Positions 1 to 50,512 of a stretch of 64,000 nt of DNA are shown here, in pieces. The first letter of the stretch is position 1. Each line of letters begins with the position of its first letter. The notes beneath the pieces were generated by a model that was not told the origin of the DNA, did not search any database, and was given only the letters and a program-made list of their open reading frames with translations. A program made the translations under genes and the position numbers. The DNA is taken from the NCBI GenBank assembly GCA_041687695.1, contig JAWLBL010000008.1, positions 32,074 to 96,073 of the forward strand. The letters are read 5' to 3'. The stretch is from Myxococcota bacterium. GTDB taxonomy: Bacteria; Myxococcota_A; UBA9042; PHBI01; JAWLBL01.

Positions 1-264
1 CCCGCTCGATGCGCAGGCGCGTCCGGCGCGGCCCGAGGGAGCTTCGGGCCGGTAGGGGGCGCGTGGGGCGGCTTGTCCAAGAGCTGCCCCTGACGTTTGC
101 ACGACCCATGCCAAGGGGGCCTCGCCCACCGCTGGCGCCGAGACCCACCCGCCCGGTGCGCGGCCGCCCGGGCGAAGCGCGGACCAGTCCCCGCCTCCCG
201 AGCGGGATTTTCACCACGCGCGGCCCGCGTGCTTCGAGCCCCGCCCTCTGCTACAAGCCATCCG

Positions 265-1173
265 ATGCGCCTCCGCACCTTCGCCTGCTCCGTCCTGCTC
301 GCGCTGGCCGCGGTCTCCTGCGGCCACACGGGCACCCTCCCCGGCCGCATCGGCAGCTTCGAGGGCACCCCGGTCGACGAGTCCTCGGGCCTCGCCGCCA
401 GCCGCACCCAGCCCGGCGTCTTCTGGACCCACAACGACTCGGGCGACTCGGCGCGCGTCTTCGCCGTCACCGCCCACGGCCAGCTCCTCGCCGAGGTCGC
501 CCTCACCGGCGCCACCCACGTCGACTGGGAAGACATCGCCACCGACGCCGCCGGCCACGTCTACGTCGCCGACTGCGGCAACAACGACAACGATCGCAAG
601 GACCTCGTCGTCTATCGCTTCGTCGAGCCGCAGCTCTCCCTGGGCGCCGCCCCCGCCAAGCTCGCCGTCGGGGTCGACCGCCAGCTGCGCTTCCGCTACC
701 CCGACCAGCAGAAGTTCCCCGACGAGACCCGCCTCAACTTCGACTGCGAGGCCCTCTTCTTCGCCCAGGGCAAGCTCTACCTGCTGACCAAGCACCGCAG
801 CGACACGCGCACGACCCTCTACCGCTTCCCGAACCTCAGCGGCACCGCCGAGCTGTCCCTCGACTACCTGGGCGAGTTCGACCTCGGCGGCGCCGACAAG
901 GACTTCGGCGGCCGCGCCACCGCCGCCGACGCCACCCCCGACGGCCAGACGCTCGCGGTCCTCAGCTATCACGCCCTCTTCCTGTTCGCCCGCCCCGCCG
1001 ACAGCGACCTCTACCTGACCCGGCCGCTCCACCGCATCGACCTCGACCAGCGCGTCACCGATCAGGCCGAGGCCGTCGCCTGGGACGGCGACTCGCTCCT
1101 CCTCACCAGCGAAAGTGGCGACATCTTTCGCATCGAGCGCCCGCTCGACCCGGCGACGACCGCCTTCCCCTGA
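265..1173 (+). CDS. Putative lipoprotein with beta-propeller-like repeats (possible phytase-like/SdiA-regulated-type domain)
   Basis: Internal ATG (M57 of ORF 97..1173, which opens at an upstream TTG) gives MRLRTFACSVLLALAAVSCG, a signal peptide plus lipobox; repeated NDSGDS / DCGNNDN motifs; high GC3 coding bias. Functional call weak. Confidence 0.5.
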   Translation: MRLRTFACSVLLALAAVSCGHTGTLPGRIGSFEGTPVDESSGLAASRTQPGVFWTHNDSGDSARVFAVTAHGQLLAEVALTGATHVDWEDIATDAAGHVYVADCGNNDNDRKDLVVYRFVEPQLSLGAAPAKLAVGVDRQLRFRYPDQQKFPDETRLNFDCEALFFAQGKLYLLTKHRSDTRTTLYRFPNLSGTAELSLDYLGEFDLGGADKDFGGRATAADATPDGQTLAVLSYHALFLFARPADSDLYLTRPLHRIDLDQRVTDQAEAVAWDGDSLLLTSESGDIFRIERPLDPATTAFP

Positions 1174-1295
1174 TCGCCCCCCGGCGAACGCCACGATCCG
1201 GGTGGCTCCCGGCTGGCGTTGCGCCGCCGCGCTCTGCTAGCCTCCGGCCCCGGTCTCCGCCTCGTCCGCCCCGCCACCGGCCTCAGGTACGCGCC

Positions 1296-3890
1296 TTGCA
1301 CCGTCCCGCCCTCCTCGCGCTCCTGGTCCTGCTCCTCGCCCTGCCGCCCCGCCCCGCTGCGGCGCAACAGGTGACCCCGCCCAAGCTGGTCACCTTCGTG
1401 CAGGCCACCCTCCCAGCGGACGCCCCCCGCCGCGCCGCCGACGTCGTCCTCCTCATCACCATCGGCGCGGACGGCGCCGTGACCGAGGTCGAGATCCGCC
1501 AAGGCGCTGGCGAACCCTGGGACACCGCCGCCATGGCCGCCGCGCGCCAGTTCGTCTTCGAGCCGGCCCTGGTCGACGGCGCCCCGGTCCCGGTCAAGGT
1601 CCCCTTCACCTACACCTTCCGCGTCCCCGTCCGCCGCGGCCCCATCGTCCCGCAGCCGCAGGCCCGCCGCGACACCGAGCGCTCCCCCGAGGGCCGCGTC
1701 GTCTCGGGCCGCATCGCCGAGCGCGGCTCGCGCACCCCGCTCGGCGGCGTGCAGATCAACGTCCGCGACCCGCGCACCGACCGCACCTGGACCACCATCA
1801 CCGACTCGAACGGCCGCTACGCCCTCGAGGATCTCCCGGCCGGCCGCCTCGAGCTGACCGTCCTCAGCGGCGACCACCAGACCCTGACCCGCCCCGTCAC
1901 CCCGGCCCCGCGCGCCGCCGACGGCGCCGTCCCCGCGGGCGACACGCTCTACCTCGCGCCGGGCACCTGGACCGGCTACGGCACGGTCGTCAAGGCCGAT
2001 CGCCGCCCCGAGGCCGCCAGCGAGATCGCCCTGACCGACGACGAGCTGCGCAAGATCCCCGGCACCTTCGGCGACCCGACCCGCGTCGTCCAGACCCTCC
2101 CCGGCGTCTCGCGCTCGCCCTTCGGCCTCGGCTACTACGTCGTGCGCGGCGCCTCCTTCGAGAACACCGGCTTCTTCATCGACGGCCACCCGGCCTACTA
2201 CCTCTACCACCTGCTCGGCGGGCCCAGCGTCATCCACCCGCAGCTGGTCGGCCGCCTCAACTTCTATCCGGGCGGCTACCCGGCCCGCTACGGCCGCTTC
2301 GCGACCGGCATCATCTCCCTCGAGACCGCCGAGCCGCCCGACGACCGCTGGCACCTCGACCTCGAGCTCGACTACTTCCGCGCCGGCGCGATGTTCTCGA
2401 CCCCCTTCGACGACAAGAAGGGGCAGCTGACGGTCTCGCTGCGCCGCTCCTACTACGATCTGCTGCTGCCGCTGTTCGTCGACAACTTCTCGTTCGGTTT
2501 CACGGACTACCAGCTGCGCCTCAGCTACGATCTGGCCCCCGGCGTGCGCGCCTTCTTCGGCCTGCTGGGCGCGATGGACTTCCTCGACGCCGAGCAGACC
2601 GAGCCCGGCGACCGCCCCAACAGCAGCGACGCGGACCTGGGCTTCCACCGCATCTACGGTGGCGTCGACGTCGACCTGAACAAGCACCTGACCTGGAAGA
2701 ACAGCCTCGCCTGGGAGTACGACTACACCAGCTCGCGCCGCACCGCCGAAGGCGAGGACAGCATCAACGCCGCCGTCGACGGCTGGTACGCCAACCTGCG
2801 CTCGGGGCTGGTCTACACGCCGCTGAAGAACCTGATGATCGAGGGCGGCCTCGACGCCTTCTACGTGACCGTCAACGCCGACCTCAAGGTCCCCAGCCTG
2901 CCGCCGCTGGGCGATCCGCGCCCGCCCGAGTTCGACCCGCTGACGGTCGCCTTCCGCGTCACCACGCCCATGGCCTCGGTCGCGCCGTACGTGCTGGCCG
3001 ACTGGGAGGTCGTCAGCGGCGTCCGGCTGCTGCCGGGCCTGCGCGTGACGGGCGACTTCTGGGGCGGCGAGGTGCACTGGTCGGCCGACCCCAAGCTGGC
3101 GGTGCGCTGGCAGCTCGACGACCAGTGGACGCTCAAGACCATGGCGGCCATCGCCCACCAGCCGCCGGCCCCCTTCCAGGCCGACGAACCCTTCGGCGAT
3201 CCCAACATCCCGCCCGTGCGCGGCTCGCAGGCCTCGCTGGGCTTCGAGTGGGTCTCGCCCGACACCTCCTGGGAGATCAGCGTCGAGGGCTTCTTCAACT
3301 ACCTCCACAACATGGCCCGCCCGGCCAACGCCATCACCAGCGACGACGGCGAGCTCGAGCGCGTCTTCTTCGCGTCGGACATGGAGGGCCGCGCGTTCGG
3401 CGGCGAGGTCCTCATCCGAAAGCGCATGGGCGGCCGCCACTTCGGCTGGCTCTCCTACACCATCGCGCGCTCCGAGCGCCTGCGCCCGCCCGAGGACTGG
3501 GAGCTGTTCGAACTCGACCAGACCCACAACCTCTCGCTCGCCTGGAGCGTCCTGCTCGGCAACGAGTGGACCTTCGGGGCCCGCTTCAACCTGACCAGCG
3601 GCAACCCCTACTACCCCATCGTCGGCTCGCGCTACGACGCCGACCGCGACAGCTACGAGCCCATCTACGCGCAGCGCCCCGACCGCATCGAGGTCTTCCA
3701 CCGCCTCGACGTCCGCCTCGACAAGCGCATCCGCTTCGAGACCTGGATGATGGAGGTCTACCTGGACATCCAGAACCTCTACAACGCCGGCAACCCGGAG
3801 TCGCCGCGCTACAGCTACGACTTCAGCTACAAGACCGACGGCCTGTCCATCCCCATCCTCCCGACGCTCGGCGTTCGGGCCGCCTTCTGA
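1296..3890 (+). CDS. Oar-like TonB-dependent receptor family outer-membrane protein with N-terminal TonB_C-like domain and carboxypeptidase-regulatory-like domain
   Basis: C-terminal ~865 aa of ORF 9..3890. Signal peptide LLALLVLLLALPPRPAAAQQ; TonB C-terminal-like segment (VVLLITIGADGAVTEVEIRQGAGEPWDTAAMAAARQFVFEPALVDGAPV); CarboxypepD_reg-like segment (GRVVSG...TDSNGRYALEDLPAGRLELTVL); plug and barrel motifs; C-terminal aromatic residue (…RAAF). Start assigned to in-frame TTG with AGGT upstream, uncertain. Confidence 0.7.
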   Translation: MHRPALLALLVLLLALPPRPAAAQQVTPPKLVTFVQATLPADAPRRAADVVLLITIGADGAVTEVEIRQGAGEPWDTAAMAAARQFVFEPALVDGAPVPVKVPFTYTFRVPVRRGPIVPQPQARRDTERSPEGRVVSGRIAERGSRTPLGGVQINVRDPRTDRTWTTITDSNGRYALEDLPAGRLELTVLSGDHQTLTRPVTPAPRAADGAVPAGDTLYLAPGTWTGYGTVVKADRRPEAASEIALTDDELRKIPGTFGDPTRVVQTLPGVSRSPFGLGYYVVRGASFENTGFFIDGHPAYYLYHLLGGPSVIHPQLVGRLNFYPGGYPARYGRFATGIISLETAEPPDDRWHLDLELDYFRAGAMFSTPFDDKKGQLTVSLRRSYYDLLLPLFVDNFSFGFTDYQLRLSYDLAPGVRAFFGLLGAMDFLDAEQTEPGDRPNSSDADLGFHRIYGGVDVDLNKHLTWKNSLAWEYDYTSSRRTAEGEDSINAAVDGWYANLRSGLVYTPLKNLMIEGGLDAFYVTVNADLKVPSLPPLGDPRPPEFDPLTVAFRVTTPMASVAPYVLADWEVVSGVRLLPGLRVTGDFWGGEVHWSADPKLAVRWQLDDQWTLKTMAAIAHQPPAPFQADEPFGDPNIPPVRGSQASLGFEWVSPDTSWEISVEGFFNYLHNMARPANAITSDDGELERVFFASDMEGRAFGGEVLIRKRMGGRHFGWLSYTIARSERLRPPEDWELFELDQTHNLSLAWSVLLGNEWTFGARFNLTSGNPYYPIVGSRYDADRDSYEPIYAQRPDRIEVFHRLDVRLDKRIRFETWMMEVYLDIQNLYNAGNPESPRYSYDFSYKTDGLSIPILPTLGVRAAF

Positions 3891-3901
3891 GGGTGACCGC
3901 C

Positions 3902-4909
3902 ATGCCTCGCCACCCCGCTCGTCGTCTCCTCGCGCTCGCCCTGGCCCTGCCCGCTCTCGGCCCGCTCACCGGCTGCCTCGAGGAGCTGCCCGAGCCCAGC
4001 AAGATCGACCGCCTGCGCGTCCTCGCCATCCGCGCCGAGCCTCCCGAGGCCATGCCTGGCGAGGCCGTGCAGCTCTCGGCCCTGGTGGTCGACCCGGCCG
4101 GCCGCACCGTCACCACCCAGTGGTCGGCCTGCCTGCTGCCCGAGCGCGCCTTCGGCTTCTTCGGCGGCGGCTCGCAGACCAGCTCCAGCGGCGGCAAGGG
4201 CTACACCCTCGACGACGCCGGCTCGTGCGCCGAGGCGCTGGCCAAGGGCGCCGAGGGCGTCGACGATCTCGGCAGCGGCCTGTCGGTCCAGACCTCCATC
4301 CCCGACGACTTCATGAGCGACGAGGCCATCCGAGCGGCCTATCGGCTGCCCGAGGACCTCGAGATCCCCGGCGAGGCCCTGCTCGGCATCCAGCTCGTCG
4401 CCGGCATCAACATGAGCGTGTCGCTGGTCGTGCAGGCCGGCGGCGACCGCCTCGAGGCCGACAAGCGCATCAACGTCTCCAGCCTGGGCGAGAACGAGAA
4501 CCCCACCGACGTCGCCTTCCACATCGCGCCCGTGGGCGACGCCGGCGATCCGCCCACCACCGGCCCCGTCCCGGCTGACGGCCGCTGCTTCGCCGAGCCG
4601 GTCACCGTCGACGCGGGGCGCACCTACCGCCTCCGCGCGCTGAACATCCCCGACCCGCAGGTCACCTACCCGGTGCTGCTGCTCGGCAACTTCGGCGACC
4701 CCATCGCCGAGGACACCGAGGTCTACTACTACTCGTATTTCAGCACCCACGGCGTCTTCGATCGCAACACCATCAAGTCCAGCAGCGGCGAGACGCAGAC
4801 CTGGACCATCCCCGACGACGCGCCCGCCACCATCCCGCTGTGGATCGTCACCCGCGACGGGCGGGGCGGCACCACCTGGTGCGAGGACGAGATCGCCGTC
4901 ACGCGCTGA
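3902..4909 (+). CDS. Lipoprotein of unknown function, probably co-transcribed with the TonB-dependent receptor gene
   Basis: ATG 11 nt after the TBDR stop; signal peptide plus lipobox LALALPALGPLTGC; no recognised catalytic motif. Confidence 0.6.
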   Translation: MPRHPARRLLALALALPALGPLTGCLEELPEPSKIDRLRVLAIRAEPPEAMPGEAVQLSALVVDPAGRTVTTQWSACLLPERAFGFFGGGSQTSSSGGKGYTLDDAGSCAEALAKGAEGVDDLGSGLSVQTSIPDDFMSDEAIRAAYRLPEDLEIPGEALLGIQLVAGINMSVSLVVQAGGDRLEADKRINVSSLGENENPTDVAFHIAPVGDAGDPPTTGPVPADGRCFAEPVTVDAGRTYRLRALNIPDPQVTYPVLLLGNFGDPIAEDTEVYYYSYFSTHGVFDRNTIKSSSGETQTWTIPDDAPATIPLWIVTRDGRGGTTWCEDEIAVTR

Positions 4910-4970
4910 GCGCGGGTGGCGTTGCTCGGACCGGGTCACGGTGGTATCCCCCCCGCGGGGAGAGACAACC

Positions 4971-6599
4971 ATGACCAACGCCACCTCGCGCATCTTCGCC
5001 GCCGCCGCGGCCGTGTTCCTCTTTGCTGCCTGCGAGCCGGGCGCCGGCTCGGGATCGGGCGGGCCCCTGTGCCAGCCGGGGGTCGCCGCGCCGTGCGCGT
5101 GCCCGGGCGGCGGCCAGGGTCAGGCGACCTGCAGCGCGCAGGGCCTGCCCGGCGCCTGCGAGGGTTGCGCGGCCGCCGACGTCGGGGGCGACACCCTGGC
5201 CGACGTCGCCGGGCCGGCCGATGTCGACGAGCCGGACACGATCGCGCCGCCCGACACCAAGGGCCCCGACGTCGTCGGGACCGACCTCGGCGCGCCGGAC
5301 GAGGGGCCCGACGCGGTGGCCTGCGTGCCCGACTGCGCCGGGCGCGAGTGCGGCGACGACGGCTGCGGCGGCGTGTGCGGCAGCTGCCCGGCGGCGGCGC
5401 CGATCTGCGACGACGGCCTGTGCGCCGTCAGCTGCCAGCCCGCGTGCGCCGGCAAGCAGTGCGGGCCCGACGGCTGCGGCGGCACCTGCGGCGCGTGCAC
5501 GGGCGAGGCCACCTGCGACGCCGCCGGGGTGTGCCAGCCGCCGGTGTGCTCGCCCCAGTGCGGCGGCAAGGAGTGCGGCGACGACGGGTGCGGCGGCGCG
5601 TGCGGCGCTTGCCCTGGCGGGTACGCCTGCGACGCGGCCTTCCAATGCGTGTCGACCTGCGCGCCCTCGTGCGTCGGCAAGCAGTGCGGCGACGACGGCT
5701 GCGGCGGCTCGTGCGGCGCGTGCTCGGGCGGTTCGTCCTGCGCGGCCGGCCAGTGCGTGACCGAAAACCCGCTGCCCGCGACCGTGAACCTCGAGATCCT
5801 GGGCGTGCTGGTCGGCCCGGCCAAGGCCTCGGGCGAGGCGTGGGACGGGGGCGGCTTCATCTCGCAGGCGACGCTGAACGCCGTCTTCGAGGCGATGATC
5901 GGCGACAGCCCGTACTCCGACGTCCTCTCGGTGATGACGTCGGCGGGCATCGCCGCCCTGGCCATGCCCGATCCGATGGGCGTGGCCGAGATCGACGTCG
6001 GCAACGGCTTCGAGACGCCCACCTCGCTCGCCGTCGCCGCCAACAACACCGAGAACACCTTCGCCCCCACCTGGCCGGCCCCGCCGCCGCCGGGCTGGAT
6101 CCAGGCGCCGGTCAGCCCGCAGCTGCGCGTCCGGATCACCCTGGAGGACGAGGACGTCGTCTTCCACGACGCCATCGGGACCGCCGTCCTGACCTACGAT
6201 CACATCCTGGCGACGTGGAACAAGGGCGGCGCCGCGCACATCGCGGTCGACGACCAGACCGACGGCCAGCTGCTGTTCGTCACGCTGGCGGTCAAGCCCG
6301 GCTGCACCCCGCAGTGCCAGGGCAAGGCCTGCGGCGACAACGGCTGCGGCGGCGAATGCAGCAAGTGCCCCAGCGGCACCGCCTGCAACGGCGTCCAGTG
6401 CGTCGCGGCTTCCTGCGGCGCCATCGGCTTCGAGGGCTGCTGCCAGTCGGGCGACCTGTACTGGTGCGAGGGCGGCCAGCTCATCGGCCTGGCCTGCCAC
6501 AAGAACCCCTCGTGCGGCTGGTCGGCCCAGGGCTACTATGACTGCGGCACCGACGGCGCCTCCGATCCGTCGAACACCTTCCCCAAGTCCTGCCCCTGA
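4971..6599 (+). CDS. Cysteine-rich repeat lipoprotein (myxobacterial Cys-rich repeat family-like)
   Basis: ATG at 4971 preceded by GGGAGAG; lipobox FLFAAC; five copies of module C-x-P-x-C-x-GK-x-CG-x-DGCGG-x-CG-x-C (four in tandem) and a C-terminal Cys-rich domain. Confidence 0.7.
   Translation: MTNATSRIFAAAAAVFLFAACEPGAGSGSGGPLCQPGVAAPCACPGGGQGQATCSAQGLPGACEGCAAADVGGDTLADVAGPADVDEPDTIAPPDTKGPDVVGTDLGAPDEGPDAVACVPDCAGRECGDDGCGGVCGSCPAAAPICDDGLCAVSCQPACAGKQCGPDGCGGTCGACTGEATCDAAGVCQPPVCSPQCGGKECGDDGCGGACGACPGGYACDAAFQCVSTCAPSCVGKQCGDDGCGGSCGACSGGSSCAAGQCVTENPLPATVNLEILGVLVGPAKASGEAWDGGGFISQATLNAVFEAMIGDSPYSDVLSVMTSAGIAALAMPDPMGVAEIDVGNGFETPTSLAVAANNTENTFAPTWPAPPPPGWIQAPVSPQLRVRITLEDEDVVFHDAIGTAVLTYDHILATWNKGGAAHIAVDDQTDGQLLFVTLAVKPGCTPQCQGKACGDNGCGGECSKCPSGTACNGVQCVAASCGAIGFEGCCQSGDLYWCEGGQLIGLACHKNPSCGWSAQGYYDCGTDGASDPSNTFPKSCP
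5322..5765 (+). repeat. Four tandem ~111-120 bp coding repeats (Cys-rich modules) inside CDS 4971..6599
   Basis: Repeating peptide modules CVPDCAGRECGDDGCGGVCGSCP / CQPACAGKQCGPDGCGGTCGACT / CSPQCGGKECGDDGCGGACGACP / CAPSCVGKQCGDDGCGGSCGACS read from the translation. Confidence 0.7.
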
Positions 6600-6610
6600 G
6601 GCCGTCCGAC

Positions 6611-6880
6611 ATGACCGCACCGACTCCGCCGACTCCGCCGTCCCCCTCGGGTGACGCCGACGAGCCCCGCTTCGAGCGCCTGCTGACCGACCTCGAGGAC
6701 GTGGTGGGCCGCCTCGAGCGCGGCGAGCTCCCCCTCGACGAGGCGCTGGCCGCCTTCGAGCGCGGCATGACCCTGGCCAAGCGCGCCGGCGCCCTGCTCG
6801 ACGCCGCCGAGGCCCGCGTCGACCAGCTGCTCGAGGAGCGCGACGGCTCGACGCGCGAGGTCCCCTTCGGCGACCGCTGA
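6611..6880 (+). CDS. xseB: Exodeoxyribonuclease VII small subunit
   Basis: 89 aa; ERLEDVVGRLERGELPLDEALAAFERGMTLAKRAGALLDAAEARVDQL matches the XseB family. Confidence 0.9.
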   Translation: MTAPTPPTPPSPSGDADEPRFERLLTDLEDVVGRLERGELPLDEALAAFERGMTLAKRAGALLDAAEARVDQLLEERDGSTREVPFGDR

Positions 6881-6884
6881 GCGG

Positions 6885-7664
6885 GTGCCGCGCCCCCCCG
6901 ACAAGCCCGCCCGGCCGGCCAAGGAGCGCCTCGACGCGCTGCTGGTCGCCCGCGGCCTGGCCGAGACCCGCACGCGGGCGCAGGCCCTCATCCTGGCCGG
7001 CAAGGTCGTCGTCGACCAGCGGCGCCGCGACAAGCCCGGCGAGCGCTTCGCCGTCGACGCCGAGGTCACCGTCAAGGACGACGACGGCTGGGCCTCGCGC
7101 GGCGCCTACAAGCTGCTCGGCGCGCTCGAGGCGTGGCCGTGGCTGCGCGAGCGCGTCGCCGGCGCGTCCTGCCTGGACATCGGCGCCTCGACCGGCGGCT
7201 TCACCGACGTGCTGCTGCGCCATGGCGCCGAGCGGGTCGTCGCCCTGGACGTCGGCTACGGCCAGCTGCACTGGCGCCTACGGTCCGACCCGCGCGTCGT
7301 CGTCCTGGACCGCACCAACGTCCGCACCCTCGCGCCCGGCGCGCTGCCCTTCGCGCCGACGCTGGCGACCTGCGACGCCTCGTTCATCAGCGTGCGCCGC
7401 TTCCTGGACGTGGTCTACCGCGAGCTCGCGCCCGGGGGCCTGTTCGTCGTGCTGGTCAAGCCGCAGTTCGAGGTCGGCCCCGAGCGGGTCGGCAAGGGCG
7501 GCGTCGTCCGCGACGAGCAGGCGCGCCAGGACGCGCTGGCGCAGGTGCGCGCCGACGCGGCGGCCCTCGGGTTCATCGACCGCGGCGCCGTCGAGTCGCC
7601 CCTGCCCGGCCCCGAGGGCAACCGCGAGTTCCTGCTGGCCCTCGAGAAGCCGGCCGTGCCGTGA
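6885..7664 (+). CDS. tlyA: TlyA-family rRNA 2'-O-methyltransferase (S4 domain + FtsJ-like methyltransferase)
   Basis: GTG start; RLDALLVARGLAETRTRAQALILAGKV (S4 domain); GAYKLLGALEAW...CLDIGASTGGFTDVLL...LDVGYGQLHWRLR...KPQFE motifs. Confidence 0.85.
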   Translation: MPRPPDKPARPAKERLDALLVARGLAETRTRAQALILAGKVVVDQRRRDKPGERFAVDAEVTVKDDDGWASRGAYKLLGALEAWPWLRERVAGASCLDIGASTGGFTDVLLRHGAERVVALDVGYGQLHWRLRSDPRVVVLDRTNVRTLAPGALPFAPTLATCDASFISVRRFLDVVYRELAPGGLFVVLVKPQFEVGPERVGKGGVVRDEQARQDALAQVRADAAALGFIDRGAVESPLPGPEGNREFLLALEKPAVP

Positions 7665-7673
7665 CGGCGGCGC

Positions 7674-8180
7674 TCAGCGAGGCGGCGCCGCGCCCAGCCG
7701 CGCGGCCAGCGCCGTCGCGTAGCGGTCGATGAAGCGGTGCTGCGACAGGAACCGGACGCGCAGACGCTCGAAGGCCGGGCGCACGGCGACGTCCTCGATG
7801 ATCTCGACCCGCGTCCCGTCGCCCGAGGGCGTCAGCGTGATGGTGCGGTGCACCAGCGCCGGAGCGTCCGGCTCTCCGACCCTCAGCACCAGGCGATGCG
7901 GCGCCGCGCACTCCTCGACCCGGTAGACGATGCTGGTGCCGCCGTGGTGGTGCTCGCGCCACGACGTGCCCACCTCGACCGCCGCCGGCCCTGCGATGCC
8001 CTTGAGCTCGCGCCGCCAGCCGGGCTGCCCGTGCCAGTCGGTGACGACGTGCCAGACCACTTCGGGTGGCGGCGGCACCTCGAGCGCCCGCGACACCTGC
8101 GCCCGGTCGGGCAGCCGCCGCCCCCACAGCCACAGCGCGCTGCCCGCGGCCGCGGCGCCGGCCACCAGCCAGCCGAACAT
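7674..8180 (-). CDS. SRPBCC (START/polyketide cyclase-like) domain protein
   Basis: 168-aa C-terminal part of ORF 7674..8966 starting at internal ATG (MFGWLVAG...); its ATG overlaps the stop of the upstream gene (ATGA-type coupling); SRPBCC-like composition. Confidence 0.65.
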   Translation of the reverse strand: MFGWLVAGAAAAGSALWLWGRRLPDRAQVSRALEVPPPPEVVWHVVTDWHGQPGWRRELKGIAGPAAVEVGTSWREHHHGGTSIVYRVEECAAPHRLVLRVGEPDAPALVHRTITLTPSGDGTRVEIIEDVAVRPAFERLRVRFLSQHRFIDRYATALAARLGAAPPR

Positions 8181-8950
8181 CAGCCCCCCGCGCCCGGCTC
8201 GGCCATCAGGATCTTCTCGGGGTCGCGCGGGTCCTCGAACCAGCGGCCGGGCTGCTTGGGCGGGGCGAGATCGAGGTGGTAGTGGTTGGCGTGGCCCGCG
8301 TCGTACTCGGGGTCGAGCACGTTGGTGAAGACCCGCTCGGCGCGTAGCCGCTCGGCCAGCCGCCTCAGGAACTCGCGGCGCTTGGCGTGCCAGGGCCTGG
8401 TGCTGTGCCAGTGCTTCTTCAGGTCCACGATGCCGTAGCCCTTGATGACGAAGCTCGCGACGTCGATGGCGTTGCCGAAGCTGTGCTGGCTCTGCGCCTC
8501 GGGCCGCAGCCGCAGCCGGCGGCAGTTGTTCGTGCCGTACTGGACGATGTACTTGATGGTCTTGCCCTCGCCGAAGACCCGCTCGCTCTCCTCCTGCGCG
8601 ATGGCCTCGAACTTCGCCATCGCCAGCGCCATGGCGCAGCTCATCTTCGGATACCCCGAGTAGCGGATGTCGCCGGGGCCGCGCTGGTACAGCAGCGCCT
8701 GCGGCGTGTAGCAGGCCATGTCCGGGTACTGCACCCCGCGCCAGCGGTAGCCCTTGAGCACTCGTGGCCGGCTCTGGGGCAAGAAGCGGTACTTCGTGAC
8801 CCCCGCCTCCTCGAGCCTGGCCTTGCAGTCCTCGACGAACAGCGCCTCCCAGGGCGCCGCGTCGAAGCCGCGGGGCAGGGGAGGCGGGGGCGCCGGCTCG
8901 GTGGGCGGCGCGGAGAGCAGCATCAGGGCGATGAGCGTCAGCGGGGGCAT
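8180..8950 (-). CDS. Secreted hypothetical protein (possible extensin-like C-terminal / M15-like fold)
   Basis: Signal peptide MPPLTLIALMLLSAPP; balanced amino-acid composition unlike GC-shadow ORFs; HANHYHLD motif near C-terminus; translationally coupled to the downstream SRPBCC gene. Confidence 0.6.
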   Translation of the reverse strand: MPPLTLIALMLLSAPPTEPAPPPPLPRGFDAAPWEALFVEDCKARLEEAGVTKYRFLPQSRPRVLKGYRWRGVQYPDMACYTPQALLYQRGPGDIRYSGYPKMSCAMALAMAKFEAIAQEESERVFGEGKTIKYIVQYGTNNCRRLRLRPEAQSQHSFGNAIDVASFVIKGYGIVDLKKHWHSTRPWHAKRREFLRRLAERLRAERVFTNVLDPEYDAGHANHYHLDLAPPKQPGRWFEDPRDPEKILMAEPGAGG

Positions 8951-9153
8951 CCGGCGTCCTCGTCACGCGACCCGGGGTCCCATCCCTCGGGTCGCCGGGA
9001 ACGCTGGCACACCGGCCCCGCCGTGTCCAAATGCTTGGCGCCGCTGCGTCGGCGACGTCGCTCCGCGCGCGATGGGCGCCAAGGCGGGATCACCGCGTCT
9101 TTCCGGCCCGCGCAGCCCCGCTCGGCGCCTCGACCCGCCGCCGCGCCCGCCGC

Positions 9154-9747
9154 TCAGCTGCGCAGCATGAACCAGGCCACGCCGGCCGCCACCACGATCG
9201 CCACGGCGACCAGCACGGCCGCGCCCGACCCACCCTCGGCCTCGTCGCCCCGGCTCACGCGCGCGTGCATCCTCACGTCCGGCCGCGCCGGGGAGGACGG
9301 CGGCGCCCCGTACCCGCCCTGCGGCATCGGCAGCTTGCGCGAGGCCTGCAGGCGCTGGATCTCCTCGGGCGTCAGGGCCAGCGTCGGGTCCACCTGCCGC
9401 GTCACCTTCACCGGGCCCGAGCCGTCGCCGTCCTCGCTCAGCTCATCCAGGCTCGGCCCGGCGCTCGCGTCGAAGCGGATGACGAACTTGCCGATGCCGA
9501 TCTCGTCACCGTCGTTCAGGCGCTGCGCCTGCGTCGACAGCCCGTTGACGAACACGCCGTTGCTGCTGCCGGCGTCGACCACCGTGAAGCCGCCGCCCTC
9601 GAACCGCACCATCGCGTGCTGGCGCGAGATGCCGCGGTTGTCGATGACGATGTCGTTGCCGTCGTCGCGGCCGATGACCATCAGCGTCTTGCGGATGGGC
9701 ACCCGCTGCAGCTCGCGACCCTTGAGTGTGACGATCAGCTCGGGCAT
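9154..9747 (-). CDS. FHA domain-containing protein with C-terminal transmembrane anchor
   Basis: Internal ATG with GGGGG RBS; FHA core GRDDGNDIVIDNRGISRQHAMVRFEGGGFTVVDAGSSNGVFVNG; C-terminal hydrophobic stretch AAVLVAVAIVVAAGVAWF. Confidence 0.75.
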   Translation of the reverse strand: MPELIVTLKGRELQRVPIRKTLMVIGRDDGNDIVIDNRGISRQHAMVRFEGGGFTVVDAGSSNGVFVNGLSTQAQRLNDGDEIGIGKFVIRFDASAGPSLDELSEDGDGSGPVKVTRQVDPTLALTPEEIQRLQASRKLPMPQGGYGAPPSSPARPDVRMHARVSRGDEAEGGSGAAVLVAVAIVVAAGVAWFMLRS

Positions 9748-9840
9748 GTCCGTTCCCCCCGGGACCCGCGGATTATGGATTTGCCCGCTTCGCACGGTCA
9801 AGCGCGCCGCCCGCCGCCGACCGTGATACAACGCGGCGCC

Positions 9841-10842
9841 ATGCACACCGGTCCCCTGCACGTCGCCGTCACCCGCCGCGTCCCCGAGCCCGGCCTCGCC
9901 CTGCTCCGCGAGGCCGGCTTCGAGGTCCGGGTCAACCCCCACGACCGGGTCCTCGGCCCGGACGAGCTGCGCGCCTTCGTCGCCGGGGCCGCCGGCCTGC
10001 TGACCACCCTGGCCGACCGAGTCGACGCGGCCGTGCTCGAGGCCTCGGGCGCACGGGTCGTAGCCAACTACGCGGTCGGCTTCAACAACGTCGACGTCGC
10101 CGAGGCCACCCGCCGCGGGGTCGCCGTGACCAACACGCCCGACGTCCTGACCGAGGCCAGCGCCGACCTGACCTGGGCGCTGCTGCTGGCCGTCGCGCGC
10201 CGCGTGGTCGAGGGCGACGCCATGATGCGGGCCGGCGCCTTCCACGGCTGGGCGCCGCTGCTGCTGCTCGGCGCCGACGTCCACGGCAAGACCCTGGGCA
10301 TCGTCGGCGCAGGACGCATCGGCCGCGCCGTCGCCCGCCGCGCGGTCGGCTTCGGCATGCGCATCCTGTACGCCGGCCGCCGCGACCAGCCCGACCTCGA
10401 GGCCCAGACCGGCGCCCGGCGCGTGCCGCTCGACGCGTTGGTCCGCGAAGCCGATTTCCTGACGCTCCACTGCCCGCTGACCCCCGAGACGCGCGGCCTG
10501 CTCTCGCGCGACCTCGTCGCGTCGATGAAGCCGGGCGCCTTCGTCGTCAACACCGCCCGCGGCGAGGTCGTCGACGAGGACGCCCTGCTCGACGCCCTGG
10601 CCGCCGGCCGCCTGGGCGGCGTCGCCCTGGACGTCTACCGCGGCGAGCCCGACGCCATCGACCCGCGCTGGGCCCGGGTCGACCCCTCGCGCGTGGTCCT
10701 GGCCCCCCACATCGGCTCGGCCACCCACGAGACCCGCGCCGCCATGGCCGTCCTGGCCGCGACCGATCTCCGCCTGGCCCTGACCGGTCAGCGCCCGCGC
10801 CACCTCGTCAACCCAGACGCCTGGCCCAGCGAGACCCCATGA
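9841..10842 (+). CDS. D-isomer-specific 2-hydroxyacid dehydrogenase (glyoxylate/hydroxypyruvate reductase-like)
   Basis: ATG at 9841 inside ORF 9031..10842; NAD-binding GIVGAGRIGRAVARRA; catalytic region …NTARGEVVDEDALLDAL…. Confidence 0.85.
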   Translation: MHTGPLHVAVTRRVPEPGLALLREAGFEVRVNPHDRVLGPDELRAFVAGAAGLLTTLADRVDAAVLEASGARVVANYAVGFNNVDVAEATRRGVAVTNTPDVLTEASADLTWALLLAVARRVVEGDAMMRAGAFHGWAPLLLLGADVHGKTLGIVGAGRIGRAVARRAVGFGMRILYAGRRDQPDLEAQTGARRVPLDALVREADFLTLHCPLTPETRGLLSRDLVASMKPGAFVVNTARGEVVDEDALLDALAAGRLGGVALDVYRGEPDAIDPRWARVDPSRVVLAPHIGSATHETRAAMAVLAATDLRLALTGQRPRHLVNPDAWPSETP

Positions 10843-25978: not shown

Positions 25979-26680
25979 TCAGCCGCGCATCACGTACTCG
26001 ACCGCCAGCTCGACCTCTTCGACCATGGCGCCGTTGCCCTTGCCGTCGAGGCGGAAGCTGGTCCACTTCATCGGCCAGGCGTCGATGAATCGATAGGTCG
26101 ACACGTAGGTCTGCCCATCGTCGGCGATGAGGTGGATGGCGCCGGTCTTGCGCGAGACCGAGCCGTCCATCAGCTCCTTGCACCAGTCCCAGAGCTTGGA
26201 GTTGGGCGTGTAGCCCTTGGTCAGCTTGATCGACCCGAACTTCTTCATGCCCGGGCGCTTCTTCGGGTACGGGTCCATGCTGTCGCGCCACTCGATGAGG
26301 TCGAACTCGACCGAGAGGCCGTCGCACTTCTGGAAGCGCCCCGCGTTCAGGCCGTCGATCTCGAGGACGAAGTTGAAGTCGCCCCAATGGTCGTCGACGC
26401 GGTTGTGCTCGCCCTTGCGCTCGAGCGGCGTGATCGTGACGCCCGGCGACTCGTGTCCGTTGGTCCCGCCGCTGGTGGTCGCCAGGTTCGTCTTGGTCAC
26501 GCCGCCGTGGTAGACGCCCGCGGTCCCGCCGTTCGTCGGAGAGAGCGTCGTCTTGGTCACGCCGCCGTGGTACACGCCCGTCGTCGGGACGCCCTTGGGG
26601 GCGCTACCCTGCGTCGGGACGAGCTTCGTCGTCGTCACGGATCGGCCGACCACCTTGTTCCATTGATCGCTGAATCCCAT
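25979..26680 (-). CDS. Phage T4 gp19-like tail-tube family protein (eCIS/Afp tube-like) with N-terminal repeat extension, orphan
   Basis: AGGAG RBS 7 nt upstream of ATG; C-terminal ~140 aa (NFVLEIDGLNAGRFQKCDGLSVEFDLIEWRD…GAIHLIADDGQTYVSTYRFIDAWPMKWTSFRLDGKGNGAMVEEVELAVEYV) matches conserved phage tail-tube (TIGR02241/PF06841-like) pattern; N-terminus carries duplicated GVYHGGVTKT(T/N)L segment; no sheath, baseplate or spike genes nearby. Confidence 0.7.
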   Translation of the reverse strand: MGFSDQWNKVVGRSVTTTKLVPTQGSAPKGVPTTGVYHGGVTKTTLSPTNGGTAGVYHGGVTKTNLATTSGGTNGHESPGVTITPLERKGEHNRVDDHWGDFNFVLEIDGLNAGRFQKCDGLSVEFDLIEWRDSMDPYPKKRPGMKKFGSIKLTKGYTPNSKLWDWCKELMDGSVSRKTGAIHLIADDGQTYVSTYRFIDAWPMKWTSFRLDGKGNGAMVEEVELAVEYVMRG

Positions 26681-26791
26681 CGGGTCCTGCTCCTATCCCC
26701 TGGAGAGTGGTCGGACAGCGCGCACGGATGGGAGGATAGATCGGGCCAGTTCCAGGATGCAAGCGGTCCAACCTCGTTGTATCGTGCGCGC

Positions 26792-39589: not shown

Positions 39590-42500
39590 CTATTCGAACA
39601 TCTCCGAGTACTCGATCTGGATGCCCATGTACTGCCGCAGGCTCAGGTACTGGTCGCTCATCGCGTACATCACCAGATCCTTGAGCTTGTCGGCCTTCTT
39701 GAGCTTGGACGTGCCGGCGACCTCCTCGCGCAGCAGGTGCCCGGCCAGCTCGACGTCGTCACACACGAGCAGCGCCGCGTGGATGGCCGTCAGCTCGACC
39801 TGGCGATGCCACAGGCCGATGTGCGGCACCCGCCCGGACTGCTTCATCTCGGCGATGACCTGCGCGAGCTGCGTGCGGTTCTGCGGCGTGATGTCCTTGT
39901 CGAGCGCGGCGCGCGTCTCCCCGACCTGCTGCGCGATCTGCATCTTCAGCTCGTCGGGCATGTCCGCCTGCAGCTGCAGCTTGTAGCTCGGGTCGATGAG
40001 CGCCTCGGCCGCCATGAACATGATGTCGAGCTGCTCACGCTGGAACAGCGCCGCCATGATGTGCGTGTTGGTCAGGTACATCAGGCGCCGGGCGAGGTGG
40101 AACGCGAGGTCCTTTTCGCCCTTGCCCTGCAGCATGTCCGGCCCGATGGACAGGACCGGCGGCTGCGTGTCGAGGATCTCGATGCCCATGCGGGTCGAGC
40201 TGCGGTAGACCTCGGGCGGCTGCAGCCCGAGGATGCGGCAGACCGAGTTGATGACCGAGCAGATGAGCAGGCCCTCGCTCAGATCGATGCGGTCCTTCTT
40301 CTTGAGCCCGTGCTCCTTGAGCTGCTTGAGCGGCAGGCTCTTGTACAGGGACGCGTAGAGGATCGCGAAGACCTGCCCGAGGTACGGGTCCTCCTGCTGG
40401 CTGGCGACCAGCTGCGACATCGCCGTGGCGTCGACGATGCGGTTGGTCTCGGCCACCGCGGCCGACTGATGGTCGCGGTAGAACCGCTCCTCGTCCGGCT
40501 CGGCCCGGTTGAGCGCCACCAGCAGCCCGGCCATGACCCACGCCTTGTCGTAGGCCTTCATCCGCTTATAGAGCTCGACCAGCTTGTGGTAGCTGTCGAA
40601 GCGGTCCGGGTGCTGCCGGATGAGGTAGCGGTGCTCCTCGACGGCCTTGTCCAGCTGGTCCGGCGTCGACTCGTACAGCCCCGCCAGGATCTCGTGGATG
40701 GCCTCGTCGTCCGGCTTGATCTTCCGCGCCAGCTCGAACGCGCTGATGGCGTAGTCCGTGCGCTTGAGGCGCGAGCGGTAGATCTCGCCCAGGTTGCGGT
40801 AGAGCATGAAGTTCACCGCGCCGTACTTGGGCCAGCTGGCGCCCGCCTTCTGCACGCGCTGCAGCATGCGGCGGTAGTTCTGCTCGAGCGGCTTCCACTC
40901 CTTGGCGTGCGTCAGCAGCTCGTCGATGGCGCGGAACGCCTCGAGCTTCTCGATGTTGTAGTCCAGCGTCAGGTTCAAGTACTTGATGGCCGACTCGCGG
41001 TCACCGACCTCGTCGCGGTAGGTGACGGCCGCCGTGTAGGCCCAGGTGGACTTGCGCCCGGCGTCCTCCTCGATCTCGATGATCTTGTTGATCCACCGGA
41101 TCGCCTCGTCGAAGTTGCGCCGCTCGATGTGCACCTGCACCAGCTGCATCAGCGGCGCCTTCGAGAAGTTCCCGTAGCCGACGGCCTTCTGGTAGGCCTC
41201 GACGGCCTTGTCCGGCTGGCGCAGGTTGTCGCGGAAGATGTCGGCGATCTTCAGCTGGATGTTGAACTTCGCGAGCGGCTCGGACTTGAGCGCCAGCAGC
41301 TGCTGCATGTAGCTGATGGCCCCCGCCCAGTCGCCGTGCGCCTCGAGCACCTCGACGATGCGCTCGATGGCGCCCGCGTTGTTCGGCTGGTGCTGGATGA
41401 CCCGCGACAGGTACGTCTGCGCCACCGAGATGCGGCCCAGCTTCAGCGCGCTCTCGCCGAGGTTCAGGTACAGCAGGACGAAGTCCTCGTCGCTGAGCTC
41501 GGACCCGTAGGTGTCGATGACCTGCTGGTAGTAGCGCAGCGCCTCGGAGTAGTTCTGCTTCTTGAAGTGCAGCCGGGCGAGGCCCCGCAGCGTCTCCTTG
41601 TCGGGGCTCGCGTGCTCCACCGCGGCCGAGTACTCGTCGAGCGCGCGGTCGTCGTCGTAGACGGCCTCGGCGCACTGGCCCAGGCGCTTGTGCACCTGCG
41701 CCAGCCGCTCGCGGTCGCCGCGCGCGTCGAGCTTGTCGACCAGCACGTCGAGCAGCGGCATCGCCTTGGTCCAGTTCCGCGTCGCCATGTAGTGGTCGGC
41801 GAGCGGCCACAGCGTCTCCTCGGACTCCGGGTTGGCCTGGACCGACAGCTCGAGGTGCTCGAGGGCGCGGCCCTCGTCGTGCAGCTTGTCGCGGAACAGC
41901 GACGCCAGCTCGACGTGCACGTCGGCGCGCGCGACGTCGTCCTGCGCGTGCTGCAGCTTGTGCTCGAGGGTCTCGAGCACCAGATCGAAGCGCTCCTCGT
42001 AGCTGTACAGATCGATGAGCGCCTGCACCGGCTGCGGGTGTCCCGGCCACTCGGCCAGCGCCTGCTTGTAGTGCTCGGCCGCCCCGAAGGCGTCGTTCAG
42101 CTCGTCGCGCCGGACCGAGCCCTGCTCGCAGTGCAGCGCGAGCCGCTCCTCGTGGCCCGACTCCACCGCCAGCGTGCGGTCGAGCGTCCCGATGAGCTGC
42201 TCCCACAGCCCCTGCTCGCGGTACAGATCCCGCAGCGCGTCCAGCGCCGGCCGGTGCCCGGGCGCCTCGCTCAGCGCGCGCTCGTAGCTGCCGATGGCGC
42301 TGTCCAGATCGCCGATCTGGTCGCGGTAGACCGCCGCCATCGCCATCAGCGCCTGCGCCCGCTCCTCGGCGGTCTGCGCCACGCCGCGCTTCTTCTCGTA
42401 CAGGTCGACCAGATCGTCCCAGCGCGACGTCTCGGCGAAGATGCGCTCCAAGGCCTCGATGGCCTCGGCGTCGTCCGGCACGATGTACAGGATGCGCTGG

Positions 42501-45500
42501 AAGGCCTCGGCCGCCTGCTCGGCGTCCTTGAACACCTCCTGCTGCAGCAGGGCGATGTTGCGGCACGCCTCGACGCGCTGCTCGTCGTTGGTCGCCGCGC
42601 CGTAGCTGCGCTCGAAGACGTCGACCAGCTTCGCCCAGTCGTTGCGCTCGCCGTAGATGCCCTGCAGCGCCTCGATGGCCACCGCGTTGTTCGGGTCGAC
42701 CGCCAGGACATCCTCGTAGACGCCGATGGCCTCGTCGATCTCGCCCAGGTTGCCTTCGAGGATCTGCGCGACGCGCAGCTTCAGCTCGCTCTCGCGCTGC
42801 GGCTCGACCCGCGAGACCCGCTCGAGGACGTCGATGAGCGCGCGCCAGTCGCCGCGCTCGGTGTGCAGCCGCTCGAGCGCGCCGAGCGCCTCGCGGTTGC
42901 TCTCGTCGACCTCGCAGATGGCCTCGTACGCGCCGACGGCCCGCTCACGGTCGCCGATGTTGTGCTCGAAGACCTCGGCCGCGCTCGACAGCAGGACCAC
43001 CTTCTCCTGGTAGTCCATCGTCACGTAGCTGAGGCGCTGCAGCACGTCGACGAGCTTCTCGAACTGCTCCAGATCGATGTTCAGGTCGACCAGCGCGCGC
43101 AGCGCAGGCTCGCTGTCCTCGGCGTGCTCGAGCACGCGCTCGAAGTAGGCCGCGGCGCTCGCCGGGTCCTGCAGCTTGTCGCGCTGCACGTAGGCGGCCT
43201 TCAGCATCGCGTCGAGGGCCGCGTCCGGATCGAGGTGCTCGATGACCCGGTCGTAGATGGCCAGCATCTCGGGCCACAGGCCCGTCAGCTCGGCCAGCCG
43301 CGCCAGCTCGCTCAGGACGTGCGGCTCCTCGGGCGCCTCGTCGATGGCCGACTCGAGGACCATGAACGCCCCGTCGGCCTGGCCGAGCTTGTGCTCGTAG
43401 AGGCCGGCCAGCCGCTGGAGGTTCATCAGGCGATCTTCCATGTCGCCCAGATGCGCGTTGCGGCTCGTCAGCAGCTGCGCCAGATCCGCCCACTGCTCGA
43501 AGGCCTCGTAGATCGCCTCGAGCCGCTGGCTCGCCTCGACGTTGTCGGGGGCGTGCGTCAGGATCTCGACGTAGGTCCCGGCGGCGGCCGCCTGGTCCTG
43601 CAGGCGCTCCTCCTGGATGGACGCCATGTGCAGCCAGGTCTCGATCTGCTGCGCCGCGTCCTCGGTGTAGCCCAGCTTCACCCGGTACAGCTCGACCAGA
43701 TCCGCCCAGCGCTCCTCGGACTCGTACAGGTTCTCGAGGTTCTCGATGGCGTCGGGCGCCCCGGGGGCCAGCTCCAGCACCGCCCGCCACGCGTCGATGC
43801 CCGCGGGCCGGTCGCCCAGCGGCTCGGTCCGCAGCTCGGCCAGCTCGCGCCACAGCGCGACCTGCGCCTCGACGTCGTAGTGGCCGCTCTCGAGCCGCGC
43901 CTCGATGCACCCGGCCAGCGCCTCGTGCGCGTAGTTGTCGCGGTAGATGACGTGCAGCGCCTCGAGGGTCTCGGCGTCGAACGCGTCCTCGGCCCGCGCC
44001 TTCTCCCAGTACATCTGCGCCTGCAGCCCGTCCTCGAGCTGCTGCTGCCAGGTGCGGCCGATGCGCTTGAACAGATCCAGCCGCCGCGCGGCGTCGCCCT
44101 GGCCCATCGCCAGCTCGCGCTCGTACGCCTCGACCAGCCCGTTCCAGTCCTCCTGGCCCTCGCGCAGCCGCTGCAGCTGCTGGACGGCCTCGAAGCTCTG
44201 CGGCGTGACCGCGAGCACGTCCTCCCACAGGTTGATGGCGTCCTCGACCTTGCCGAGGCACACCTCGGCGATCTCGGCCATGTCCGCCATGTAGCCGGCG
44301 CGCTCGGCGTCGTCGCCCGTCGTCTCCGACAGCTGCTGGAGGATCTCGAACAGGGCGGGCCAGTTCTCGTCCTCGTGGTACATCGTGCGCAGCGCCTGCA
44401 GCGCCTCGCCGTGCGTGTCGTTGATGTCGAGCACGCGCTTCCAGGCGTCGATGGCGTCCTCGCGGCGCCCCAGGCGGTCGCGGTACAGCTCGGCGAGCCG
44501 CACCAGCAGCTTCATGCGCTCGTCGTCGAACTCGGCGACGTCGGCCTCGCGGGCCAGCACGCCCTCGAGATCCTCCCAGCGCTCGGCGGCGACGTAGATG
44601 CGGTCCAGCGCCTGCAGCGCCGGGAAGTTCTCGCCGTCCTGGCCCAGGATGAGCAGGTAGACGCGCTCGGCCTCGGCGATGTCACCCAGGCGATCGCGCG
44701 TGATGGCGGCCGCGCGGCCCCACAGCTCGACCCGGCGCTCGTCGTCCTGCACGGCGTCGGCGCCGTCCATCAGGATGACCTTCACCTCGTCCCAGCGGTC
44801 GGTCTCCTCGGCGAGCGTGCGCAGCTGGACCAGCAGGCCCTCGTCCTCGGGGTCGAGGCGGAAGGCGTGGCCGAACCAGGCGATGGCCTCGGGCTTGCTG
44901 CCCAGGCGCTCGAGGTTCAGCTCGGCCAGCTGCCGCATGATCTGCAGGCGGTCGAGCGGGTCCTCGAGGACCTCGAGCTTGAGCTCGAGCAGCCCGTGCA
45001 GCTCCTCCCAGGCCCCGCGGCCCGTGTAGATGGGCTCCAGGCGCTCGGCGATGTCCAGGCGGTGGACGCCCGCCACGTACAGGCGCTGCAGCTCGGCGAT
45101 CGCGTCCTCGGACTGCTCGTCGAGGTACAGGACCTCCATGTAGGCGTCGAAGGCCCCGTCGGTGTCCTCGAGGCAGGCCTCGCAGACCTGCGCGAGCTTG
45201 AAGAGGAAGCCCATCTTCTCGGCGGGCTCGGTCTGCGTCTCGATCTGCTGGCGCAGCACCTCGACCAGCGGCTCGTACTGGCCCTGGGCCTCGTACAGGG
45301 CGTGCAGCCGCGCCAGGACCTCCTGGTGATCCGGGTAGTCCTCGAAGATCTTCTTGTAGACGTCGGTCGCGCGCGCCGCGTCCTGGACGCGGTCCATCAG
45401 CAGCGCGCCGGTCTTGAGGCGCAGCCGCTGCGCGAGCAGCTCGTCGTCGGTGTCCTCGGCGCCGGCCGCGTACAGCGCGACCAGGGCCTCGATCATCTCG

Positions 45501-50410: not shown

Positions 50411-50512
50411 GTATCCCCTCGACGACCCGCGATGCGACGAACGACCCGAGACTGGTCAGCCCGGAAGGTCGCTAAGTCACTCGGAAAAGCGGCCCTTCCG
50501 GGGGCAGTCCGG

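Follow-up and report, generated by a model that had tools for sequence, protein, structure and literature searches.

This analysis concerns three adjacent genes at positions 1296 to 6599 of a 64,000-nucleotide (nt) stretch of DNA from a Myxococcota bacterium (GenBank assembly GCA_041687695.1, contig JAWLBL010000008.1, positions 32,074 to 96,073 of the forward strand), which is referred to below as the window. The genes, here called g1, g2, and g3, encode a TonB-dependent transporter, or receptor, and two predicted lipoproteins. An initial annotation had treated the three as a single transport or secretion module and had pointed to a segment of the receptor that resembles TonB's C-terminal domain (TonB_C). 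All three genes are present in the sequence with the 11-nt spacing between g1 and g2 that had been reported, and comparison across genomes places the first two together as a two-gene cassette that is conserved across Myxococcota. Coordinates are those of the window and protein lengths are in amino acids (aa):

1296..3890, plus strand: g1, TonB-dependent transporter; TTG start, 864 aa, two-domain extension at the periplasmic N-terminus
3902..4909, plus strand: g2, partner lipoprotein; ATG start, 335 aa, lipobox LTGC
4971..6599, plus strand: g3, Cys-rich mosaic lipoprotein; ATG start, 542 aa, lipobox FAAC, 55 Cys

The lengths of the three proteins are the same in public gene calls (GCA_041690335.1, JAWLHM010000004.1). 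The DNA of the region is 70-77% G+C, and the G+C content at third codon positions (GC3) is 0.96-0.97 in each gene. The gap of 11 nt between g1 and g2 is followed by one of 61 nt between g2 and g3 and by another of 11 nt between g3 and the next gene, xseB.

The receptor encoded by g1 is made up of the following parts, from the N-terminus onward:

1296..1367, plus strand: signal peptide, aa 1-24, MHRPALLALLVLLLALPPRPAAA with cleavage predicted before QQ; read from the sequence
1371..1619, plus strand: TonB_C-like domain, aa 26-108; from Pfam, NCBIfam, a PDB profile search, and the structural model
1620..1694, plus strand: linker with the basic motif RRG(R/P), aa 109-133; predicted to be disordered
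1695..1955, plus strand: CarboxypepD_reg domain (Ig-like, "Oar-type"), aa 134-220; from PF13620 and the β-sandwich strands of the model
1977..1997, plus strand: TonB-box-like motif Y-G-T-V-V-K-A, aa 228-234; from conservation, with a putative function
2028..2309, plus strand: Plug domain, aa 245-338; from PF07715
2352..3890, plus strand: 22-strand β-barrel, aa ~353-864; from the DSSP strands of the model and Foldseek

The succession that had been proposed for g1, namely a signal peptide, a TonB_C-like segment, a CarboxypepD_reg domain, and a barrel, was borne out, with the domains passing Pfam cut-offs and the barrel recognized in the model and by Foldseek. CarboxypepD_reg (PF13620) matches aa 136-204 with 42.5 bits against a cut-off of 32.3, and Plug (PF07715), the best-conserved part of the receptor family, matches aa 245-338 with 30.5 bits against a cut-off of 23.9. 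The domain search suggested by the initial annotation succeeded for PF03544, PF13620, and PF07715, but not for PF00593, which has no match on g1 itself though many homologues do match it. An AlphaFold model built from 96 sequences has a predicted local distance difference test score (pLDDT) of 89.6 and a predicted template modeling score of 0.80. It begins with a helix at aa 3-15 in the signal peptide region, continues with a β-β-α-β domain (aa 26-108), a disordered linker (aa 113-129), and an Ig-like sandwich (aa 134-220), and then passes through a coil that holds the TonB-box-like motif (aa 228-234) into the plug and the 22-strand barrel. When the model is compared with solved structures using Foldseek, FptA is retrieved first (E 5e-24), followed by FpvA, FepA, Cir, FhuA, and BtuB (to E 1e-21). 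The barrel has no special affinity to any single solved transporter in this comparison; its nearest structures are ordinary importers, and as modeled it appears to belong to the compact FptA/BtuB size class.

The TonB-box-like motif lies about 15 residues N-terminal to the plug core and is well kept across 96 homologues, with T230 present in 77, V or I at position 231 in 76, and V or I at position 232 in 91. The STN domain (PF07660), in contrast to the domains above, has no match on g1 at E≤1, the SusC/RagA model TIGR04056 scores 9.5 bits against a cut-off of 368, and a whole-protein phmmer search of PDB sequences returned nothing useful. Taken together, the domains, the model, the missing STN domain, and the distance from SusC/RagA identify g1 as a genuine TonB-dependent transporter that has a TonB box and whose N-terminal extension consists of two domains.

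The first domain of this extension is related to TonB by several measures. Its similarity to TonB_C, which the initial annotation had proposed, is supported by two hidden Markov models (HMMs) above their curated cut-offs: PF03544 (TonB_C) matches aa 45-107 with 38.5 bits (cut-off 24.6), and TIGR01352 (tonB_Cterm) reaches 39.6 bits (cut-off 27.1). A profile of the N-terminal segment made from 26 homologues finds 6fip in the PDB at E 1.2e-5 and then 6i97, 2k9k, 1u07, and 2gsk, and the same profile also retrieves TolA. Compared with a genuine TonB that is encoded beside a homologous cassette, the segment shows 31% identity to the C-terminal domain, and its predicted structure agrees with that domain, with the β-β-α-β fold modeled at pLDDT >90. 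The homology thus extends to both sequence and predicted fold. Unlike TonB proper, g1 has neither an N-terminal membrane anchor nor a Pro-rich spacer, and the domain is placed behind a cleavable signal peptide and ahead of a plug and barrel.

In an alignment of the TonB_C segment, some residues are invariant and the β3 edge strand, V-x-V-P-F-T-Y, is strongly conserved; this strand corresponds to the one through which TonB itself pairs with TonB boxes. Directly after the domain come R90, R91, and G92 (numbered as in the N-terminal-segment alignment), which are invariant or nearly so. The linker that carries this near-invariant R-R-G-(R) motif is nevertheless predicted to be disordered, with pLDDT <50 for aa 113-129, and the motif could be a binding or processing site. 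In the monomer model, the TonB box is a coil and not a β-strand (pLDDT 64-75), and the linker that follows TonB_C is disordered, so the model lends no support to binding of the domain in cis to the box of its own receptor.

A segment HMM found the TonB_C domain in 65 of 73 receptors adjacent to the cassette lipoprotein, and four of the eight misses are on contigs truncated at the 5' end. This leaves 69 receptors that can be evaluated, of which 65 keep the domain, with barrels that have diverged to ~30% identity. Because it is kept across such deep divergence, and because the edge strand and the R-R-G motif are conserved, the domain is probably functional. Hundreds of other Myxococcota proteins also carry the extension. 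It also heads the curated model of MxcH, the receptor for the siderophore myxochelin (NF038079): positions 1-105 of that model align with aa 28-130 of g1 at E 1.2e-19, indicating the same TonB_C-type extension. Over the whole protein, g1 scores only 69.9 bits against the MxcH cut-off of 925, which means that the extension alone is held in common and that the barrel is of a different family. Identification of related Myxococcaceae receptors as MxcH was likewise rejected (87 bits against 925). Judged from these alignments, the TonB_C extension is probably a general feature of myxobacterial receptors and not one specific to those paired with g2. Many full-length homologues of the receptor are named "TonB family protein" in NCBI and JGI records owing to the N-terminal TonB_C match, so that outer-membrane transporters are systematically misannotated as TonB.

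Several known receptors share part of this architecture. The Oar-type transporters, exemplified by Oar of Myxococcus xanthus (PMC6434023), are also found in Myxococcota and, like g1, have a CarboxypepD_reg domain placed after the signal peptide and ahead of the plug, a TonB box, and a 22-strand barrel. In comparison with them, g1 has an additional TonB_C domain ahead of CarboxypepD_reg, a much smaller barrel, and a dedicated lipoprotein gene downstream, so the earlier description of the receptor as "Oar-like" holds solely in the sense of its CarboxypepD_reg (PF13620) N-terminal extension. The transducers FecA, FpvA, and FoxA resemble g1 in that a globular periplasmic domain is attached by a flexible linker before the TonB box, but in g1 this domain is not STN, and no sigma or anti-sigma gene accompanies the cassette in the loci that are annotated.

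The second gene of the cassette encodes a putative outer-membrane lipoprotein, for which lipidation is predicted from a lipobox that ends in GPLTG before the lipid Cys. This Cys is kept in at least 90% of 22 homologues and is followed by the conserved residues L-E-E/D-L-P and by a highly conserved first strand, LRVLAI, that sits in a confidently folded domain (pLDDT 92-97). Four further Cys are conserved as two pairs (C77, C109, C229, and C327), and the most conserved part of the protein is a Gly/Ser-rich stretch, FFGGG..T..SGG.GY, which lies within C77...C109. A second conserved motif, W-x-V-x-R-D-G-R-G-G, is found toward the C-terminus. Structure prediction gives g2 a fold of two β-sandwich (Ig-like) domains. 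The Gly/Ser loop at 4130-4228 (aa 77-109) is bracketed by a predicted disulfide and is the sole part modeled at pLDDT <50; it is a candidate for ligand binding or for insertion into the receptor.

No Pfam or NCBIfam model matches g2 above its cut-off, and searching PDB sequences with a g2 profile returned nothing useful. A word-indexed search recovered 26 relatives, none of which has a Pfam domain, and the same is true of ten distant members of the family, which have no Pfam family. The family is large nonetheless: the g2 profile, when run against 1.84 billion cluster representatives, matched 3,567 at E≤1e-3 and 1,701 at E≤1e-10. Among the Foldseek matches of the g2 model is the surface glycan-binding protein SGBP-B of Bacteroides ovatus (6e57), and tandem Ig-like β-sandwich domains are a feature of surface glycan-binding proteins in general.

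The association of g1 with g2 was examined in two samples of loci found through g2, one of six metagenome or genome loci obtained by exact look-up and one of 79 loci with one genome per GTDB species. In the first sample, a TonB_C-bearing receptor is immediately upstream of the g2 homologue in all six loci, and the stop and start codons of the two genes overlap in four. In the second, 69 of the 79 loci have a g1-like receptor gene as the immediate upstream neighbor in the same orientation; a further four have an adjacent receptor in another arrangement, and none was found in the remaining six, in at least one of which (L081) the g2 match abuts the end of the stored sequence. One locus that carries the cassette, L026, is from Hyalangium versicolor, and homologues are present in Myxococcus/Archangium. 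The adjacency persists where g2 identity has fallen to 23-29% and barrel identity to ~30%. When the search is started from g1 instead, the gene that comes after each of two divergent receptors (40% and 33% identity), at a spacing of -4 to +3 nt, encodes a lipoprotein that matches the g2 family (E 1.6e-39 and 1.2e-11). Of the 79 species-representative loci, all that are named belong to Myxococcota, except for three with implausible labels. Records L082, L035, and L037 have myxobacterial gene content and 67-73% G+C, yet they are labeled "Comamonas sp. KCTC 72670" or "uncultured Enterobacteriaceae" and are probably mislabeled or mis-binned.

The genes that flank the pair vary widely from locus to locus, and xseB-tlyA is near it only in the window's own record. 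In seven distinct loci (L004/L012, L014, L017, L034, L035, L037, and L082), genes for exbB-exbD(-tonB) are found no more than 6 kb from the pair; in L004/L012, they are at 8086-9989, and in L004, they come directly after the lipoprotein gene. Two loci, L003 and L007, have a spermine-synthase-like gene upstream in divergent orientation and a histone-deacetylase-family gene downstream, the latter possibly encoding an acetylpolyamine amidohydrolase. These flanks might hint at polyamines, or they might merely reflect the kinship of the two genomes, and they are not counted as evidence here. The other loci differ, so that no consistent metabolic neighbor pointing to a substrate was found among them.

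A lipoprotein gene immediately 3' of a receptor gene and translationally coupled to it is also the arrangement of the SusC-SusD/SGBP, BtuB-BtuG, and TbpA-TbpB systems. SusD, BtuG, and TbpB themselves have no sequence or specific fold relationship to g2, and the pairing of g1 with g2 is known here from the genes. Assignment of the cassette as a SusC/RagA-SusD pair was rejected, both on the TIGR04056 score (9.5 against 368) and because g2 is mainly β and not all-α.

The third gene, g3, encodes, as the initial annotation had described, a 542-aa lipoprotein with five Cys-rich modules. Its lipobox ends in FLFAA before the lipid Cys, and the modules, at aa 118-151, 155-188, 193-226, 230-262, and 445-477, share 14 invariant columns that include eight Cys, C-x-P-x-C-x-G-[KR]-x-C-G-x-[DN]-G-C-G-G-x-C-x-x-C...C...C. 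The protein is arranged as follows:

5322..5756, plus strand: four tandem 8-Cys modules of ~37 aa each, aa 118-262
5757..6302, plus strand: Cys-free middle domain, aa 263-444
6303..6401, plus strand: fifth, isolated 8-Cys module, aa 445-477
6402..6596, plus strand: C-terminal Cys-rich module of a second type, ~65 aa, aa 478-542; from local BLASTP against g3 homologues

At the DNA level, the repeats appear as a tandem array of 3.5 copies of 111 bp at 5347-5731, and the 8-Cys motif is found nowhere else in the window. Modules of g3 occur in more than 1,800 proteins, mostly from uncultured Myxococcota, where they are joined to unrelated partner domains such as M23 peptidase, peptidyl-arginine deiminase, FGE-sulfatase, and TIG. 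The C-terminal module, CG..G..GCC..G.L.WC..G....C.....CGW......Y.CG, is present in up to four copies per protein in many unrelated Myxococcota proteins, and the middle domain has two weak relatives (P0185 and P0129, 28-29% identity) among the matches listed. Neither the 65-aa module nor the 37-aa module has a Pfam or NCBIfam model, and g3 as a whole matches no Pfam or NCBIfam family at E≤1 and no PDB sequence by phmmer. The Myxococcus cysteine-rich repeat (TIGR02232 / PF13948) was considered for the g3 repeats and rejected, as there is no HMM match at E≤1; judged by its motif, the g3 module is a different repeat that has not been curated. Together, these observations describe g3 as a lineage-specific surface or secreted lipoprotein that is a mosaic of widely shuffled Cys-rich modules.

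Downstream of g3 are xseB (6611-6880) and a tlyA-like rRNA methyltransferase gene (6885-7664). The gap between g3 and xseB is as short as that between g1 and g2 and the gene series continues into tlyA, so proximity or co-transcription at this locus is no sign of common function. Upstream of g1, at 265-1173 on the plus strand, is a further lipoprotein gene whose product begins MRLRTFACSVLLALAAVSC... and has the lipobox AVSC; it has no Pfam match, and no relative of it was found in any of the related loci. Lineage-specific lipoprotein genes, this one and g3, border the conserved g1-g2 pair on both sides. No inverted repeat is present in the region upstream of g1.

The explanation that we favor, with a probability of roughly 0.6, is that g1 and g2 form a self-contained, TonB-energized import cassette and that g3 is an unrelated neighbor. 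On this explanation, g1 would be a conventional TonB-dependent transporter whose periplasmic N-terminus is lengthened by the TonB_C-like and CarboxypepD_reg domains on flexible linkers. The lipoprotein g2, which would be translated in step with g1 as the stop/start overlap in many relatives suggests, may serve as an accessory subunit that captures or presents the substrate, by analogy with SusC and its surface glycan-binding proteins, BtuB-BtuG, and TbpA-TbpB. Transport would be powered by a normal ExbB-ExbD-TonB complex acting on the TonB box of g1. The TonB_C-like domain would represent a third kind of extension at the N-terminus of receptors, typical of the lineage and also carried by MxcH. 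Its conserved edge strand suggests that a partner strand is bound by β-augmentation, as in TonB, and the candidate partners are TonB, peptidoglycan, another TonB box, and the lipoprotein g2. Finally, g3 would have been placed by chance between the cassette and xseB-tlyA.

Several observations weigh against this explanation. MxcH also has the extension, so whatever the TonB_C domain does is probably not tied to g2 in particular. An Rfam scan of positions 1-8000 found no RNA element, riboswitch or other, and hence no clue to a substrate; no σ70-like promoter was found, and there is no sigma or anti-sigma gene among the neighbors scanned in the annotated loci. In addition, g3 could be co-transcribed with the cassette in this genome and could have acquired a local functional link to it.

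Among the alternatives, one concerns the TonB_C domain alone and would make it a structural or recruitment element instead of a cargo binder, either anchoring the receptor to peptidoglycan or pre-docking TonB through pairing of two C-terminal-type domains. The C-terminal domains of TonB crystallize as dimers and are reported to bind peptidoglycan, and this general background fits with a domain that is tethered by a disordered linker of ~20 residues and is present on receptors of differing specificity, including MxcH. As a separate explanation we consider it possible but on balance unlikely, and it is a refinement of the import cassette rather than an alternative to it.

A bolder proposal is that TonB_C defines a third and functionally distinct class of receptor extension beside the STN "transducer" and the CarboxypepD_reg "Oar-like" types. 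The domain would act as the receptor's own TonB-type hand, gripping a β-strand of a partner (TonB, the TonB box of another receptor, or g2 during its delivery) and so gating energy coupling or driving lipoprotein export. We regard this as rather improbable; if it is true, g1 and g2 together would make up a novel type of outer-membrane machine, linked to TonB and specific to Myxococcota.

Slightly more doubtful is an export module of the Oar-PopC kind, for which PMC6434023 provides the comparison. Here, g1 would flip or secrete g2 to the cell surface, with the TonB_C-like domain catching a β-strand of the cargo. In its favor are the high conservation of the residues from the lipid Cys of g2 onward (C-L-E-E/D-L-P) and that of the first strand LRVLAI, but that strand lies within a folded domain (pLDDT 92-97) and is not a free TonB-box-like peptide. 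The g1 barrel, moreover, is small and importer-like, and the same extension is carried by MxcH, which is a siderophore importer by annotation.

The single module of all three genes, as first envisaged, is very improbable. What speaks for it is that the three genes share a strand, are separated by 11 and 61 nt with nothing resembling a terminator in between on the plus strand, and all encode exported products. The part of the proposal that joins g1 to g2 is upheld by their conservation together (69 of 79 and six of six loci), but the inclusion of g3 is refuted by the same comparison, as no g3-like sequence (repeats, middle domain, or C-terminal module) was found within ~6 kb in any of the 85 related loci. 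The relatives of g3 occur in unrelated contexts, and the three loci that encode its longest-matching relatives have no receptor; tight spacing is also not specific to function, given the equally short 11-nt gap to xseB. Lastly, an old fusion of a tonB gene with a receptor gene could have left the TonB_C-like domain behind as a relic without function, and the tonB genes that adjoin some cassettes make such an origin plausible. This idea is hardly credible for a domain that 65 of the 69 evaluable receptors retain, with barrels of ~30% identity, and that combines invariant residues, the β3 edge strand V-x-V-P-F-T-Y, and a pLDDT >90.

Two genes elsewhere in the window are recorded here as observations in their own right. 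A lone T4 gp19-like tail-tube gene (PF06841, E 8e-31) is found at 25979-26692 on the minus strand, between priA and an AIR-synthase-related gene, in a stretch that is otherwise housekeeping; it might be a remnant or part of a phage-tail-like or contractile injection system. At 39590-50455, also on the minus strand, a single open reading frame of ~3,620 aa consists almost entirely of tetratricopeptide repeats and has a GC3 of 0.98.

Periplasmic extensions are used to classify TonB-dependent transporters, since they determine whether a receptor serves signaling, import, or, in the case of Oar, secretion. In a survey, 34,893 transporters were sorted into five N-terminal architectures, none of which contains TonB_C (PMC6434023), and the extension types set out in PMC1790865 are the transducer (STN) and Oar-like types, which are the only two that the searchable literature describes. 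Searches of the same literature found no paper on a fusion of TonB_C to a receptor, on the g2 family, or on the g3 repeat with its DGCGG motif, and nothing relevant on MxcH. Databases already contain the architecture, in the MxcH model and in hundreds of proteins automatically named "TonB family protein" or "TonB-dependent receptor", and the cassette itself is well supported by comparison and unstudied. The Cys-rich g3, which is the source of the unusual look of the locus, is incidental to it. What the cassette brings forward is a TonB_C domain that is near-universal in a large family of Myxococcota receptors and paired with one uncharacterized lipoprotein family. The partner of this domain, once known, could reveal a new regulation or use of TonB energy at the outer membrane, and the cassette could give a role to thousands of "hypothetical" lipoproteins while correcting the misannotation of their receptors as "TonB family protein".

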